Assembly: GCF_038025025.1 (NCBI RefSeq)
Contig: NW_027117347.1
Location: 1,843,292-1,863,291, forward strand
Length of the DNA: 20,000 nt
Reading direction: 5' to 3'
From: Phyllosticta citribraziliensis
Lineage: Eukaryota
Both the position numbers and the translations under genes were made by a program. Below the pieces are notes generated by a model. The model did not search any database. It had not been told where the DNA came from and was given only the letters and a program-made list of their open reading frames with translations. This document shows positions 11,739 to 20,000 of the stretch, piece by piece (position 1 is the stretch's first letter; every line of letters begins with the position of its first letter).

Positions 11739-14218
11739 ATGGCTTTTCTGAATCGTAGAACTGGCGACGCCAAGCTCAAAACTGCTCCCGACCTCATACC
11801 GTCATCCTCACCAGCGTTTGCGACTCCGCCAGTCAACCCTGCCCGTCCTCTACGAACGGCGCCTATTCCTGCGCCGCCTTCTTTGAAGCCCACCGTCCTC
11901 CCAATCGTCCTTCCACCGGCTTCTCTGAGACCACTGGCATTCAGGACATTCACGAAAAAGCATAATCTCACCATTTCGTCATCTGCGCTCGCAGCACTCG
12001 CTACATTTGTCGGACGACATTGCGGCTCGGGATGGAGGGAAGAGGGACTCGCGGAAAAGGTTTTGGAAGAGGTCGCACGAGCATGGAAAAAAGCCAGCGG
12101 TAGCGTCATCGTTCAAGGAGATGATCCGCTGCTGAAGACCATTCTCAAGACGCTGGAAGGATGTATGGTCGGCGGGCGAGTTGTGCAAGGGAAAACTCCA
12201 ACGCTTTCGCGAGACAGCAGCTTCAAATTTGGTGCCAATGGCCTTGACCCCGGGGCAGTGCCGACACTGGAAAAGCAGGACAGCTTTGGAATAAGTGGCC
12301 TGAGTGTGGGCGAGGAGGACGGAGAGGACGAGAGCAGAGATCCACGCGATTGGATCAAAGTTGTTGGAGCCTACGAGCACCCCAAGATGGTGTACAATGT
12401 CATGAAGAAGCACTTTGATAGGTACGGCGCCCAATTCACTGACAGCATTGAACTCAAGCTAAATATTCCAGATCGACCGCGAAACCCACCCTCTTCCCGC
12501 AGCCCTCTACCAAGACAGAGCTTTTCCGCCAACGATATCACATCATCCATCAGCGCCTATTGCGTAACGAGTCCTTTGCGACTCCCTCATTTGCCGGCAA
12601 CAGGACATCGTCACTCCATCGTACCGATACGGGCTCGGCTTCCTCAACAAACAAAATCACTCCCATCTCCAACCTGCTCGGCCGTCACGGTACCAATCAC
12701 CTCCTCCTGGGATTGCTTGCAGTCTCGCCCACCGGAACCTTGGCTCTCTCAGATCTCACAGGCACCATTGCCTTGGACATCACGCACGCGCGTCCAATCC
12801 CCGACGATGGAGCATGGTATTCGCCTGGAATGATTGTGCTTGTTGATGGCACATATGAGGAGGACTACAGCAATATTCACGCTGGATCAGCCAACGCGCT
12901 TGGTGCGACCGGTGGTGTTGGAGGAACGATTGGAGGGAAGTTCATTGGGTTTTCAATCGGCCATCCACCACCCGAGAAGCGCTCCCTCACACTTGGAACT
13001 CCCGACAGCAACGTCCCAGACGCCTCCACAAGTGCTGCCGTAGGGCCCGCATTTGGCTGGACGGACTTTCTAGGCATGGGCTCTGAACGTGCGACGGGCG
13101 CGAAAATGCGAAGAATCCAAGCACGTCTGCTGGGATCCGAGGCCCCCACAGCAAGTCATACCAAAATCGTCATTGCTGCGGATGTAAACCTCGACAACCC
13201 CCAAACCTTTACCGCTCTTCGCACATTACTCTCTACATACGAGGCTACGCCCATTACCGATTACCCGCTCGCCATGGTCTTCATTGGCAACTTTGTTTCG
13301 ACCGCAGCCATGGCGGGCGTTCCAGGTCACGGCAGCATAGAGTACAAGGAGCACTTCAACGCTTTGGCCTCTGTATTTTCAGACTATCCTCAACTGATTG
13401 CTCGGACCACCCTTGTGTTCGTCCCTGGTGACAATGACGCCTGGCCCAGCTCATTCTCGTCTGGGGCGGCTTGCCCTCTGCCAAGAAAGAACGTTCCCGA
13501 CATTTTCACCAGCCGCATCAAGCGTGTGGTACAAGAAGCGAACAGAGAGATCGGCGGCTCGGAAAAGCGAAAAGAGGGCGAAGTCATCTGGACAAGCAAT
13601 CCAAGTCGACTGACTTGGTTCGGTGTGCAAGGAGAAATGGTCCTGTTCCGCGACGACGTGACAAGCCGGTTACGACGCAGCGCCATCCGCTTCAAGAAGC
13701 CTGAAGAAGAAGAGGACGGTGAGGACGAGGATATGGACCTGGAGGAAGAAGCGCAGCGGCGCCGCAATAGCCGTGAAGCCACAGTTGCTTCCGTGCTGCC
13801 CGAAGACGACGCTGCACCAGCCGACTCAATGGAAGTGGACCAGCCGCCAGAGAACGAGTCGCCATCGCTCACCCACCGTCCAAAGTCTCAGCATCAGCCG
13901 ATTCCCGGGTCGTCTCTTGATTCCGACACCCTCCTTGCTCGCGCGTTAACTCGCACAATCATCTCACAGTCACATCTTTCGCCCTTTCCGCTGCATGTGC
14001 GGCCCGTCCATTGGGACTTTGCGCATACCCTGGGTATCTACCCTCTGCCAACTGCCCTCGTGTTGGCGGACAATGACGCCCCGAGCTTTGCCCTGAAGTA
14101 CATGGGTTGCGCGGTGATGAATCCGGGGAGTATTGCTGACGGGAGGAAAGGTGAGCGATGTCGCTGGGTCGAGTACTGTGTGCGGGAGGGCAAGGGCACT
14201 GTCAGGGTTGTTGATTAA
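11739..14218 (+). CDS. DPB2: DNA polymerase epsilon subunit B
   Basis: Exons 11739-12421 and 12472-14218. Motifs LRPLAFRTFTKKHNL, LFRQRYHIIHQRLLRNESF, ITPISNLLGR, LSDLTGTIALD, FVPGDNDAW, TSNPSRL and QSHLSPFP..RPVHWDF..L.IYPLPTALVLAD. Confidence 0.96.
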
Positions 14219-14390
14219 GTCAAGCATTTGGGGGGGTTTTCACCATCGAGGGGATTTCATGACATTGCAGTTCATATGTCCACTGGTTGACTTCGGCATC
14301 TTGGGCGACGCTTGCAATATTTCCTGGACACATCGGCGCTGCGACGCGCAGCCTGGAGACATGTTGTCACCCAAGAATGAGGAAAGCCGT

Positions 14391-15323
14391 TCAGTCCTCA
14401 TCAGCAACCATGTAGACCTGATCGCCGACTTCCACGCCGTTCTCAAGCAATTCAGCTATTCCCTCCTCATCGTCGTCGTCATCATCCTCGTCCTCTCCGT
14501 CTCCATCTTCTGCGCCCTCACAATTTCCATCGAGTTCCTCTGCTAGATCTGCGCTGATGACTTCTTCGTCGTTATTGCCAAGCTTCTCGCCAAAAACAGA
14601 CCAGGTTATCTTGTCGTCCAGTTTTGCTTGGTCCACATGTTTCCTTTGCAAGCTTCGTCAGATTATATGGCATGCGCGATCCAACTGGTGACTTACCGGA
14701 AGCCCAAGCTCCTCCAGACGATCTACTTGAAGCCGATTGCAAAGATGTGCTCGCCTTCGAGACCAAAAATCTTTTTCAGCTCCTCCGATCTCGAATGTCC
14801 GACGCCGACTCCAGAGTCGAGTTGTTCTCCTATGCGCAACTGTCAGCACAGAAATATTTCTGTGGTGGATGCAATGGATGGCGACGAAATTGATGGGTCC
14901 GAAGTTCTGAACTCACCCAAGCCGATACATCGATGCCGTCAGTCTCAATCATCAGTGTGATTCAAATCGGCGGAAAATTCTTTGCTTTGTCCCTCAGGGA
15001 TGGTCGGATTCTTTGCGGTTTGCAGCTCGACGATCAAATGGCGGTTCCGACCCCACTTGATGTTCAACCACTCCTGCGCCTCTTCATCTCTGACGAATTT
15101 CTAAAGAGTGGCTGGGCTGCCGGAACTAGCATTGGTCGACTCCCATGCATTTGAGCTCCGAGTCGTTCTTGTTCTTGAAGGTGTTCGATTTATCGAGCAG
15201 GCTCGCCAAAGACGGACAAGGATAGTGCGAACTGGCTGCCAACACTAAAGCCTCGAATTCCAGTCTCACGATGCGCACAAGAATGTTTGTGGGAAGCAAT
15301 TTCTCACCGTTTCGGCAGGGCAT
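14391..15323 (-). pseudogene. Degenerate fungal gasdermin-like gene (RCD-1/HET-Q1-like) with acidic C-terminal tail
   Basis: Two recognisable introns: 14916-14830 (GTGAGT..GCTGAC..TAG) and 14696-14644 (GTAAGT..TCTGAC..AAG). Conceptual translation across lesions: ...FKNKNDSELKCMGVDQC*FRQPSH/KFVRDEEAQEWLNIKWGRNRHLIVELQTAKNPTIPEGQSKEFSADLN/..GIDVSA/GEQLDSGVGVGHSRSEELKKIFGLEGEHIFAIGFK*IVWRSLGFRKHVDQAKLDDKITWSVFGEKLGNNDEE...acidic tail. In-frame TAG stops at 15128-15126 and 14725-14723, plus frameshifts near 15100 and 14920-14960. Motif order matches fungal gasdermins as I recall them. The 5' boundary is uncertain. Confidence 0.65.
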
Positions 15324-16119
15324 CTCAGTTCCAGTGCCGACACCCGCAAAATTCGCTTAAACGGAGCAGCTTCCCGCCCCCTCAGGACTTTCGAAGCCGT
15401 AAGGAGACCCGGCGTGCTGAAAGTTTACCGCTCGGCCCAGACATCCGAAGTTGACTCGGCTGCAGGTCGTGGCGGAATGTCTATTTCAGGACGCAGTCAA
15501 CGCGCGCATATCCAAAGAATGAGCGTGATCGACGAGTTCCGGATACATGCATAGCCGCTCTGTCAAGAGTGGGGGATCGAGCCGCTTTGTTGACTGGGGG
15601 CCATCTAATACCTACAGCTATGCAATCCCAAATCCACTTGCTACAGGGCAATAGCACTTTGTGGTCGAAATCTCATCCCCGAAGTACGAAAACCAAGAAG
15701 TAAGGCGTTATCAACTCAATCAATGGTTGAATCATCACCATAGACAGCTACAAAGAAAGGACAATGAACGGGTCTCTCCTGATCGAGCGGTGCCCTCCAC
15801 GCTTCGTGCGCGATTGTAACCTTTGCATGAGCATTCCGTGCAATTGGGAACCAATTATGTCGCTAGCAAAGCAATTCTCGCGAGCTTTAAGCGCCACGGT
15901 TCCAAATGGAGGTAAAAGAAAAAGCGAGAGAGCAATATCCTTGACGGTGGGGCTACAGGGGCGCCTGAAGTTCAGCGCTAACAGTTCTACATTTATTTTC
16001 GCAATCGCGCAAACAATCGGAATGCTCAAGAAAGCGTCATTTTCGATTCTTCGATCCGAGAAGCTCGAATTACCGGAGCACCAAAACGTACACATCAATT
16101 CGAAAGTTCTAGACCAGAG

Positions 16120-19100
16120 ATGCGGTTTCCAGGAGCCCTCAAGCGCGCCCGCGGCTCTGTACGTTCGCACCTTGGTACCATTGACAAAACCACGGAGCGG
16201 GTACTCTCCTTTGCGGAGGAGCTAGCATTCCAGGCCACCGAGCAGACTGATCAGTACGAAGAGACCGGTGATGTCGAGAAACTCCGCCGAGCGATCAATT
16301 TCCTGCAGCAAGCCCTGAACACTATAAGCGAAGACCAAAGGAAACCAATTTTTGAGCGCGACGATTATTTGGGCGAGTTCGTGCACGGAATTTCGCAAGA
16401 CCAATGTCTTGCTATCCGGACCTTGTTCTTTGCAACCGGTGATGCGGCATACCTTCATCATTGCATCAATCAAACCAAGATGCTTGTCGCAGCTTCACCG
16501 AAACCTCCCCGGTCTCTCTTCTTCGAGCTTTGCTTTCTGAGCCGCACCCTTTCTTATCGCTACTTTGCACTTGGAGAAGAAAATGAGAGCGATCGAAGAG
16601 ATGCTCTCGATGCTCTTCGACGCGCCTCATCAGTCCTGCAAAAGGAGCGCAAAAAACTGGATCTCTCAGGTGCGGAGTTGACCACCTTCCAAGAAGAAAA
16701 AGAACTGCTCGACAAGCCGATCGAAATTGCAAAAGGCATATATCTCTACAACCGCGCAGCCAATTTCAAACGCCGGTTCTTCCACTCTGGAGATCTCAAG
16801 GCCTTGCGGTCCGCCCGCTCGTATTTCGCCAGAGCTTTGCAGCTTTTCCCTCCGGCTCATCCAAATTACACAAAATGTGCCGTCAGTGTCGCTGACTGCG
16901 AAGTAAATTATGTCCATGGGACCAACGACATCGCCGGATTGCAACCAGCGCTGAAAGTAATCGATTCCCTTGACGTCACCGGTTCAAGTACCGATGAGTT
17001 TATGGATGCTACGCACACGAAAAGCCTGCTTTACAGAACCAAGTACGATTTCTCATCTGATCCCAAGGACCTTGAGTACTCCATAGCAGCGGCCAAGGCT
17101 GCCGTTGCGATCAGCGCAAAGAGCCGAAACCTACGCATGTTTGCGTTGGAAAACCTTAGCAGCCAGCTTTGTCGTCGTGCTGAAGCCCAGCGATCTTCTG
17201 AAGACATCGATGCCGCGATCGTAGCCGCGAGAAATGCACTTGACGTGTGTTCCGAGGAACGAGTTCAGCGGGCGGAGGCATATGCTAACCTCGGCGCTCG
17301 ACTTGAAATGAAGTACACTCTTTTCGGCGGATCAGAGAACCTAGTGGCTGCTATTGGGCATTCTCGCTTTGCTGTTACCACGTTGCCGGAAAACCACCGA
17401 AAAAGAGCATTGCATTTGCACAACTTGTCGAATGGACTGAGACTTGTCTTTGAGGATTCCGGAAAGGCGGAAGTGCTGGATGAGAGCATTCGAGTGGAGC
17501 GCAATGCGTTGAAAATCGCAGCGAGAGATGATCCCGAAAAGTACATCATGCTGTATGGGTTGAGCCTTTCGCTGGAGCATCGCTTCAGGAAGACCCAAAA
17601 TTCGCAAGACATGAACGAAGCCATGTCAGCAGCAGAAGAAGCGCTAGCCGGGATGCCAAAAGGTAGGCAAATACGGGAACTTTTCCTAGCGGACGACGCC
17701 CATTCAAGGTGGATCGAGCAGGGTGCGGTGTTTTTTTTAGGAGTCACGTTGTATGATGTCTGTTCAATTGAGACTGTGCTGATGAATGTACTAGGAAGCA
17801 CCAGATATCCCATGTGTCTTCACAACCTGGCAAATGTTCTGCACGACAGATTCATGCGGTCGAAGGCGATCTGCGACATTGACCGAGCAGTGAAAGCCGC
17901 TTCCGATGCGATTTCAAGCGGTAGTTCCGATGAGACCGGTGAACTCGTTTACTCAATGACGCTTTCCGCGTGTCTGTTCTCAAGGCATGATATCAGTAGA
18001 GACGTTGCTGACATTGACCAAGCCATCAGTGTTGCGCGCGGTGTCATTCGTAAGTCCGCTTCATTTCCACTAGTAAGGTACTCAAGGATTTGATGGGATT
18101 GATCCAATACTGAAATTAGTTTTACTTCAGAGAAATGTTCTCGATCGCATCCGAAGCGACCCCACTGGTTGAGCGAGCTTGTATTACTGCTTGACCGTAG
18201 GTTCGAGTGTTCGGGCTCGAAAGAAAAACACGAGTATCTTGACCAAGCATTGCAATTTCGAAAGGAAAGCGTGGCCACACTTTCAGAGCATCATCCAGAC
18301 ATGGCCTGGTTTTTATGCTCTCTCGGAAGCCTTCAAGTGAAAAAGAATGAGTTGCTCATAGACGGTGCGAACCAGCGAAAGCCAGGTTTCTTATTGGGTG
18401 CAATCGCGTCATTCCGCCGGGGTTTCAATCAAGCGAACGCCAGTCCCTCAAGCAAAATCTGCAACGGAATGCTGGCCGGCTCCTGCTACATGGCCTTGGG
18501 GAACTGGGAGCCTGCGAGCGAGATCTTATCAGGAAGCGTTCAGCTTTTGCAGCAAGTCAGTCCACTTTCCTTGGACGACAATGATCGTCAGCACCAGCTT
18601 CGGGGTCTTACGGGCCTGTCCACGGAAGCCTGCGTATCTTATCTCATGTTGGGCAAAGTTGAAGCTGCCGCCGAGATTTTGGAGGCTGGCCGAGGAATCA
18701 TCGCCAACATCTCGACAAGACAACACGAAGATCATAAAGCTTTGAAGAGCGCGAGTTTGAGCCTTCACACTCAGTACACCGAGCTTTGTCAGTCATTGTC
18801 GCTGGGCTCGTCCGCCGAGAGAGACGAGGGCCTAGATCTGGTGGCGAAGCGAAACCAGGATCAAGCGAGCCTCGAAAGAATCGAAGAGCGCATTCGTCGG
18901 CTACCGGGTCTGGAGCATTTCAACAAAAGACTTTCGGCTTCGCAGATTCGTCGACTTGCTGAAAGAGGCCCTTTGGTATCCTATTGCACCACAGAGTCTC
19001 GAGCTTTTGCGCTCATCGTCACAACGAAATCAATTAGCTCCTTGCCGTTGCCCGATCTTCTTTGGGACGATGTCGAGAGAAACACACCTCTGGTTACCGG

Positions 19101-19896
19101 AGACAACAGATTGAGTCTTCGGCCGCCGTCGAAACGGTCCGGAGCAAACAAGAAAATGCGAGAATTGCTTGCTTGGCTATGGGACACGGCGGTGAAGCCA
19201 GTGCTCGACCATCTAGGACTAATTCGAAGTGAGGGGGAACGGCTTCACCCTCGATTGTGGTGGGTGACGAGTGGGCCTCTGGGCGTCATGCCTTTGCACG
19301 CAGCCGGTAAAGGCAGCAAGTTCCCACAGGAGAACACGTACGCCCATGTTGTCTCGTCGTACACTGCCACTTTTTCCGCCCTGGCATTCGCTCGACAATG
19401 TCAATCGAAGGTTTCCCGGGCTCAGCCGAAAGTGGCTCTGGTAACCATGCCGAAAACAGCCGCGAGGAGAGACTTGAACACTGCAGCGGAGGTACAAGCC
19501 GTGCGCGATGCTTTTTCAACTTCGGGCACTGGACTGGTTGAGATGTGTCAACCTGCGGCGGCAGACGTCTTGCACCAAGTCCGCGGCGGCAGCATCGACG
19601 TTTTTCACTTCTCCTGCCATTCCGAACCTGATCTCAACGACCCTTCAAAAACATCTTTGCTCTTTGGCTGCGATGCGACCGCCACATCTCCAGATCGACT
19701 TCCGATCCAGGAACTGAGAAAATTCAACGGTGCGACCGACCTGTCGTCCCGCGCGCCGCAACTCGCGTATCTTTCAGCGTGCTGCACGGCGCAGCAGTAC
19801 GATTTGAAACTCCTCGACGAAAACGTCCATTTGGCAGCAGTTTTCCAGGTGATGGGATTTCCGTCCGTGATCGGAACGCTTTGGGAAGCAGATTAG
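16120..19896 (+). CDS. TPR-like repeat + CHAT (caspase HetF-associated) cysteine protease, C-terminally truncated by the telomere
   Basis: Exons about 16120-17662, 17795-18049 and 18131-19896. About 45-aa helical repeats (e.g. LENLSSQLCRR...EDIDAAIVAARNAL; LHNLANVLHDRF...DIDRAVKAASDAI), then EILEAGRGII, LAWLWDTAVKPVLDHLG, RLWWVTSGPLGVMPLHAAG, VVSSYT, the catalytic His in HFSCH (19618-19620), the catalytic Cys in AYLSAC (19780-19782) and GFPSVIGTLWEAD*. The start codon is provisional. Confidence 0.9.
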
Positions 19897-20000
19897 GGTT
19901 AGGGTTAGGGTTAGGGTTAGGGTTAGGGTTAGGGTTAGGGTTAGGGTTAGGGTTAGGGTTAGGGTTAGGGTTAGGGTTAGGGTTAGGGTTAGGGTTAGGG
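19893..20000 (+). repeat. Telomeric repeat (TTAGGG)18, chromosome end
   Basis: 108 nt of perfect TTAGGG from 19893 to the window end, with the G-rich strand running 5'->3' toward the end as expected for a right telomere. Confidence 0.98.

Follow-up and report, generated by a model that had tools for sequence, protein, structure and literature searches.

The assembled lineage of Phyllosticta citribraziliensis, a citrus endophyte from Brazil (so described in the available portions of PMC9073689 and PMC6859488), very probably carries a chromosome arm that was truncated into a gene encoding a TPR-CHAT protein, with a new telomere added at the breakpoint. The window, by which we mean the whole 20,000-nt stretch of DNA that was analyzed, ends in telomere repeats that begin inside the coding sequence of this gene and supply its stop codon. 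Using contigs, and contigs only, from four public runs (X1, X2, X3, and X5), we made comparisons with positions 12000-19904. The RNA origin of X1 and X2 is read from their spliced contigs only, and among the runs listed none is on record as RNA. Two protein records of the same species are also used, P0255, which ends at the telomere, and P0241, from a second public assembly, which does not. The features of the gene and of the new end are listed below.

16120..19896, + strand: truncated TPR-CHAT coding region, 1187 aa, with a spliced translation equal to P0255
16120-17662, 17795-18049, and 18131-19896, + strand: exons, the last including the stop codon; introns taken from the spliced X1 and X2 contigs
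17663..17794, + strand: intron 1, 132 nt, GT..AG, open in frame; joint 17660 to 17793 ('cut +2') in X1 and X2 contigs
18050..18130, + strand: intron 2, 81 nt, GTAAGT..CAG, with an in-frame stop; joint 18049 to 18131 in X1 and X2
19162..19887, + strand: CHAT (caspase-like) domain, N-terminal four fifths only (PF12770, E 1.3e-23)
19618..19620, + strand: candidate catalytic His codon CAT, kept; invariant, H496 in alignment A1 and P0241 H785 in alignment A2
19780..19782, + strand: candidate catalytic Cys codon TGC, kept; invariant, C550 in A1 and C839 in A2
19893..19893, + strand: breakpoint and putative one-base seed T, shared by Asp GAT (third base) and TTAGGG (first base), from the X2 contig against the window
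19893..20000, + strand: telomere array (TTAGGG)18, perfect, to the window end (Tandem Repeats Finder and exact string match)
19894..19896, + strand: TAG stop codon built of telomere-repeat bases (junction and ORF list); Asp in the intact allele

Tandem Repeats Finder reports a single array (period 6, 18.0 copies, 100% matches, 0 indels, 19893-20000), which forms the last 108 bases of the window and is an exact string match to TTAGGG x18. When up to one mismatch is allowed, all 17 window matches to the 12-base double unit TTAGGGTTAGGG lie inside 19893-20000, against 0.03 expected by shuffling, and 17 matches were reached in 0 of 200 shuffles. Outside the array we found just two lone single hexamers, at 1212 and 8150. 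The G-rich strand runs 5′ to 3′ toward the sequence terminus, and the orientation is therefore that of a true chromosome end.

The junction at 19885-19899 reads GAA GCA GAT TAG GGT. On the + strand the sequence before the array is read as the codons GAA GCA GAT, and the next triplet, TAG, consists of repeat bases and closes the frame, so that a 575-aa ORF (18169..19896) ends at 19894-19896. Thus the junction read and the ORF frame confirm what a preliminary description had claimed, namely that the telomere is joined inside the CHAT coding sequence and that its first repeat gives an in-frame TAG; its further claim that the array lacks degenerate repeats agrees with the 100% matches and 0 indels. 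A hexamer one mismatch away from the telomere unit, TTTGGG, lies at 19880-19885, 8 nt upstream of the junction; over the 60 nt that precede the junction, G+T is 60%. We dropped TTTGGG as a candidate recruitment motif, since by a rough estimate one such 1-mismatch match per 60 nt is not clearly above chance.

The gene is spread over two ORFs, 16120-18093 and 18169-19896, which share a frame and are split by the in-frame stop in intron 18050-18130. Intron 17663-17794 is hidden in ORF lists because it is open in frame; plain lists gain 44 false residues from it, and it was exposed only by the spliced contigs. The spliced translation is letter for letter that of P0255, a 1187-aa 'CHAT domain-containing protein' of P. 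citribraziliensis located on a contig of 1,863,291 bp, with the C-terminus ...GFPSVIGTLWEAD (LWEAD). The N-terminal two thirds of the protein are TPR-like, and weak sequence matches were to 7zoq and 7y9x. The gene is single-copy.

Truncated and intact states of the gene

An artefact would give the same picture if a chimeric read or a mis-join had put telomere repeats on an intact CHAT gene, the chromosome itself continuing, and the gene does indeed continue in X2 and in P0241. Against this, record 1 of X1 (organism A) is a 7708-nt contig that covers 12000-19904 and 5 letters beyond with 0 differences, thus following the window over 7.7 kb and showing an identical junction. Since seven introns are missing from this contig (GT..AG on the + strand, CT..AC for minus-strand genes), it is RNA-derived. 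It includes the joint between CHAT sequence and telomere, with 12 confirmed repeat bases, or 17 when its 5 unaligned last letters are counted. Among the loose ends listed for X1 none falls at 19893, and the array is perfect and correctly oriented for a terminus. An assembly chimera is ruled out because the junction recurs in a second, differently made library, and we consider an artefact of this kind barely credible. The culture behind X1 may be the one that was assembled, in which case X1 is a second library and not an independent isolate.

The intact state was observed in other data sets. Record 7 of X2 (organism A, other study and year) is spliced and follows the window over 17793-19893 with 0 differences. 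It equals the window through 19893 and then reads GAC ATA GCA..., where the window has TAGGG from 19894; repeat and template overlap by one base, the T at 19893, and nothing foreign or subtelomeric is inserted between them. Past this T, the X2 contig has 350 nt more, starting GACATAGCAGCTGCTTTCATCGCTAAGGCA and encoding D I A A A F I A K A, which is exactly the continuation of P0241. In an unbroken chromosome, the unique non-telomeric sequence expected past 19893 is GACATAGCA....

P0241 is identical to the last residues of the window's product at 587 of 587 positions and has 71 further residues, DIAAAFIAKAFY...WANFIHFRL; it lies on a contig of 1,885,381 bp. Its model starts 240 residues later than that of P0255 and skips 17 residues, CLFSRHDISRDVADIDQ, that P0255 and the spliced contigs include. 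These are annotation differences over the same underlying sequence.

In the sister organism B, run X5 (~96% identical) yields a 4006-nt contig with 143 differences and 17 gaps. Past 19892 it reads ...GAC GTA GCA GCC GCG TTC ATC, i.e. the CHAT sequence goes on. This DNA copy of the gene matches window positions 15765-19759 and extends beyond the breakpoint. Despite it, protein searches returned nothing at 68-99% identity among the matches listed, and in the protein collection the X5 gene copy may have gone without annotation or be represented in broken form. In the surface metagenome X3, 16 of 30 contigs are ≥99% identical to the window, which indicates that the species or a very close relative is present in an environmental sample; X3 has depth in the last bin, and among the matches listed none reach the junction.

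Contigs running into normal CHAT sequence, which the preliminary description had proposed as the sign of a chimera, therefore do exist in X2 and X5, but in other data sets, while X1 still holds the junction. The missing 3′ part, which it suggested seeking in sister strains, was found in P0241, X2, and X5; tblastn of the missing 71 residues did not find them within the 20-kb window, and a scan of metagenome contigs for relatives with flanks gave 14 pattern matches, none of them confirmed. Altogether, the truncated and the intact states are both real in the public data of the species. The two are identical in sequence up to the breakpoint, and because they are indistinguishable there the truncation post-dates measurable divergence. 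This fits the earlier suggestion that the deletion is recent, a timing that we infer.

The end of the window within the array, together with the tendency of contigs to break at repeats, leaves room for an interstitial tract, in which the repeats are internal, produced by a fusion or by insertion of telomeric DNA, and the contig or window simply ends partway through. Such a tract is hard to reconcile with the intact allele, which has no repeat at the site, or with the length of the truncated contig, which falls 22,090 bp short of the other contig (1,863,291 against 1,885,381 bp) instead of exceeding it. In a related system, the available text of PMC8381367 calls more than 4 repeats 'extremely rare' internally and gives native telomeres ~20-30 repeats, to which 18 is close. 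We consider an interstitial tract highly improbable. For the favored reading, a truncated arm with a new terminal telomere, the 22,090-bp difference is only suggestive of a loss of ~22 kb, since the contigs may differ elsewhere too.

The missing part of the CHAT domain

The PF12770 match covers residues 332-573 of ORF 18169-19893 and profile positions 2-232 of 289, with a score of 84.4 bits against a cut-off of 24. We examined the domain in two alignments, A1 with 10 sequences (the window and nine homologues of 37-68% identity) and A2 with 34 sequences. The His at 19618-19620 and the Cys at 19780-19782, which we take to be the catalytic pair following the caspase/CHAT literature, both lie upstream of the breakpoint, and the TPR array is also kept. 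The domain is nevertheless incomplete, with the C-terminal helices and the last strand missing from the window copy.

Close homologues do not naturally end at LWEAD. Eight of the nine aligned homologues run on past this motif with ~60 conserved residues in the pattern D.AA..A.AFY.EL... ARA.H.A...R ... W..F.H.G, and the conspecific P0241 continues as well. The ninth, P0004 of Phyllosticta capitalensis (1465 aa), diverges at the GTLWEAD motif (A1 columns ~1490-1530), reading GTFGRPTTSQPPS..., and ends ~40 residues past the motif with residues unrelated to the family. From its sequence this divergence looks like a frameshift or a mis-called splice, which would make P0004 a second family member with a degenerate CHAT C-terminus.

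We used AlphaFold2 to model the intact P0241 from the 34-sequence alignment (mean pLDDT 86.5, pTM 0.85). In this model, the breakpoint falls just after the strand E867-871, and the lost residues 877-947 contain H877-897, H907-924, H936-939, and E942-946, the block having a pLDDT of 74-92. In the caspase-like fold, what is lost amounts to two helices plus the last strand. The preliminary description had stated that CHAT domains normally have further helices and a terminal W..F...G strand; these elements, the strand as W..F.H.G, are seen both in the alignments and in the fold of the intact protein, and they are absent here. Three independent lines of evidence, the homologue alignment, P0241, and the AlphaFold2 model of the intact protein, show that the gene is truly truncated.

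The best Foldseek matches of the intact P0241 model were Csx29/TPR-CHAT (8eey_B, E 6.5e-17) and separase (7nj1_A, E 4.7e-12). Csx29, of the type III-E CRISPR 'Craspase', and separase resemble the intact allele in combining a TPR array with a caspase-like CHAT domain; as top matches they span E-values of 6.5e-17 to 1e-12 at an identity of only 10-14%. Unlike Csx29, the fungal gene is stand-alone, without a CRISPR partner, and its window copy is without the C-terminal fifth of the domain. A caspase-fold domain deprived of the helices and the strand that close its sheet is expected to be inactive or destabilised. The 1187-aa product is probably an inactive or unstable protease, and the truncation would accordingly be a loss of function.

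Probable healing of the broken end, and its surroundings

The sequence next to the new telomere has none of the usual marks of a subtelomere. GC content is 0.508-0.626 across all twenty 1-kb windows, and no direct-repeat families were found in the window. A Pfam scan of 16 ORFs matched 5 to housekeeping families (RabGAP-TBC, ATG7, SHNi-TPR (histone-chaperone-like), DNA polymerase epsilon subunit B, and cytidine/dCMP deaminase) and 11 to none, with no helicase, transposase, or reverse transcriptase among the 16. The absence of a subtelomeric helicase, of transposon relics, and of an AT-rich buffer, all noted beforehand by eye, is borne out by these data, and the subtelomeric zone is absent at this chromosome end. 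Among these housekeeping genes is:

12452..14218, + strand: DNA polymerase epsilon subunit B gene, main exon (PF04042, E 1.4e-36)

This gene, whose ORF is 97% identical to a P. citrichinensis protein, ends 5.7 kb from the telomere. Its conspecific records share their two contigs with the CHAT records and bear neighbouring accession numbers. DNA polymerase epsilon subunit B is essential in yeast. ATG7 and other housekeeping genes are at most 13 kb from the telomere. Additionally, an acidic Asp/Glu-rich coding stretch at 14462-14502, in a minus-strand gene with introns 14643-14695, 14829-14915, and 15251-15306, draws many unrelated contigs; in each of the four runs depth peaks there and loose ends are numerous. 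One weak inverted-repeat pair was found, within acidic-coding sequence; one arm is this stretch and the other the acidic tail in the gene for DNA polymerase epsilon subunit B.

The data are consistent with the following course of events. In the lineage behind this assembly, the arm would have broken or eroded into the 3′ part of the TPR-CHAT gene, with the loss of the final 71 codons and their stop codon, of the 3′ UTR, and of all distal sequence. Telomerase would then have extended the broken or resected 3′ end from a minimal single-T seed, and the first repeat would by chance have set a TAG in frame. Despite the break, the gene is still expressed and spliced, with RNA reading into the repeats. 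Since the allele is shared through the T at 19893 and is followed by pure repeats without inserted bases, the junction has the signature of a telomerase seed, and telomerase is the most likely agent, judging by the structure of the junction only. In the available text of PMC7367193, 19 of 24 events had seeds of 1-4 nt and one new telomere arose from a single T. According to the accessible part of PMC8381367, the same cause accounts for differences among strains of a single species in the internal position at which a chromosome ends. A terminal deletion healed de novo, as first proposed from the window alone, is hence supported by the X1 junction, by the intact X2 and P0241, and by the single-T overlap, with the part of telomerase inferred.

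The end could also be real and have come from recombination, that is from break-induced replication or telomere capture and not from telomerase. Both are listed among the fungal repair routes for naked ends in the portion of PMC7367193 that was available. Capture, however, normally brings subtelomeric sequence. At this junction perfect repeats meet unique sequence with a 1-nt overlap, and neither foreign bases nor degenerate units are present. Strand invasion needs more homology than one base, a length that is typical of telomerase seeds. We therefore give recombination very little weight and favor healing by telomerase.

Telomere healing of broken ends is well known in fungi and other eukaryotes, and P. 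citribraziliensis is a new instance. Older cases of gene truncation by breakage and healing are known from Plasmodium falciparum. There, according to the available text of PMC5550746, telomerase-type healing likewise cuts coding genes, subtelomeric ones, at chromosome ends, in another kingdom and with another repeat. Zymoseptoria tritici is, like P. citribraziliensis, a Dothideomycete, and its breaks are healed by new telomeres in vegetative growth; in the accessible sections of the reports (10.1101/304915, PMC6510446) the focus differs, being on chromosome instability and accessory chromosomes. Closest in its details is the terminal truncation of Magnaporthe/Pyricularia oryzae, for which the available portions of PMC7367193 and PMC8381367 describe TTAGGG directly on non-telomeric sequence, seeds of 1-4 nt including a single T, and a chromosome-end position that varies among strains. 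In the same portions, the M. oryzae events cluster in rDNA, telomeric retrotransposon arrays, and unstable ends, whereas the P. citribraziliensis break lies in a single-copy coding gene with housekeeping neighbours and no transposon nearby. A further difference is that in P. citribraziliensis an expressed gene takes its stop codon from the repeat. Among the papers listed in a literature search, none dealt with the chromosome ends of P. citribraziliensis, leaving aside a P. ampelicida paper with 'telomeric repeat' three times.

Transcription into the repeats and significance

The RNA-derived X1 contig covers all of 12000-19904, from which we conclude that transcription and splicing still take place in the genes beside the new telomere, the cut TPR-CHAT gene among them. 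The mRNA of the latter has at least 12 bases of UUAGGG-type sequence after its telomere-derived UAG, the X1 contig ending ~17 nt into the repeats. In a formal sense this makes the transcript a chimera of a coding gene and a TERRA-like RNA. TERRA is telomeric-repeat RNA transcribed toward the chromosome end, with UUAGGG-type sequence on its 3′ side. It arises from subtelomeric promoters and is non-coding. The X1 contig may resemble TERRA in the direction of transcription, toward the end, and in its at least 12 UUAGGG-type bases after the coding sequence; it differs in that here a spliced mRNA runs into the tract. We tentatively suggest, as a possibility that falls short of being probable, that the healed end makes a coding gene drive an mRNA-TERRA chimera, in which the telomere gives the stop codon and a UUAGGG-repeat 3′ UTR and no silencing occurs. 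That silencing would be absent up to the first repeat is suggested by the RNA-derived contig, which spans 12000-19904 unbroken. If this is true and the RNAs are stable, the end could serve as a natural single-telomere reporter for the effects of transcription on telomere length and capping in a filamentous fungus.

For genome annotation, the finding serves as a warning. The in-frame TAG in the first repeat leads pipelines to call a 'complete' protein of 1187 aa, and in the public record this truncated product passes for an entire CHAT protein. Gene models that end in a telomere should be checked before comparative or domain analyses make use of them.

For the biology of the species, a chromosome end relocated by breakage and healing can be resolved here through two states in one Dothideomycete species. 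It involves what appears to be a single-base seed and no subtelomeric buffer, and it leaves a DNA polymerase subunit gene now only 5.7 kb from a telomere. For the TPR-CHAT family, truncation of this kind would represent one route of gene loss between closely related lineages.
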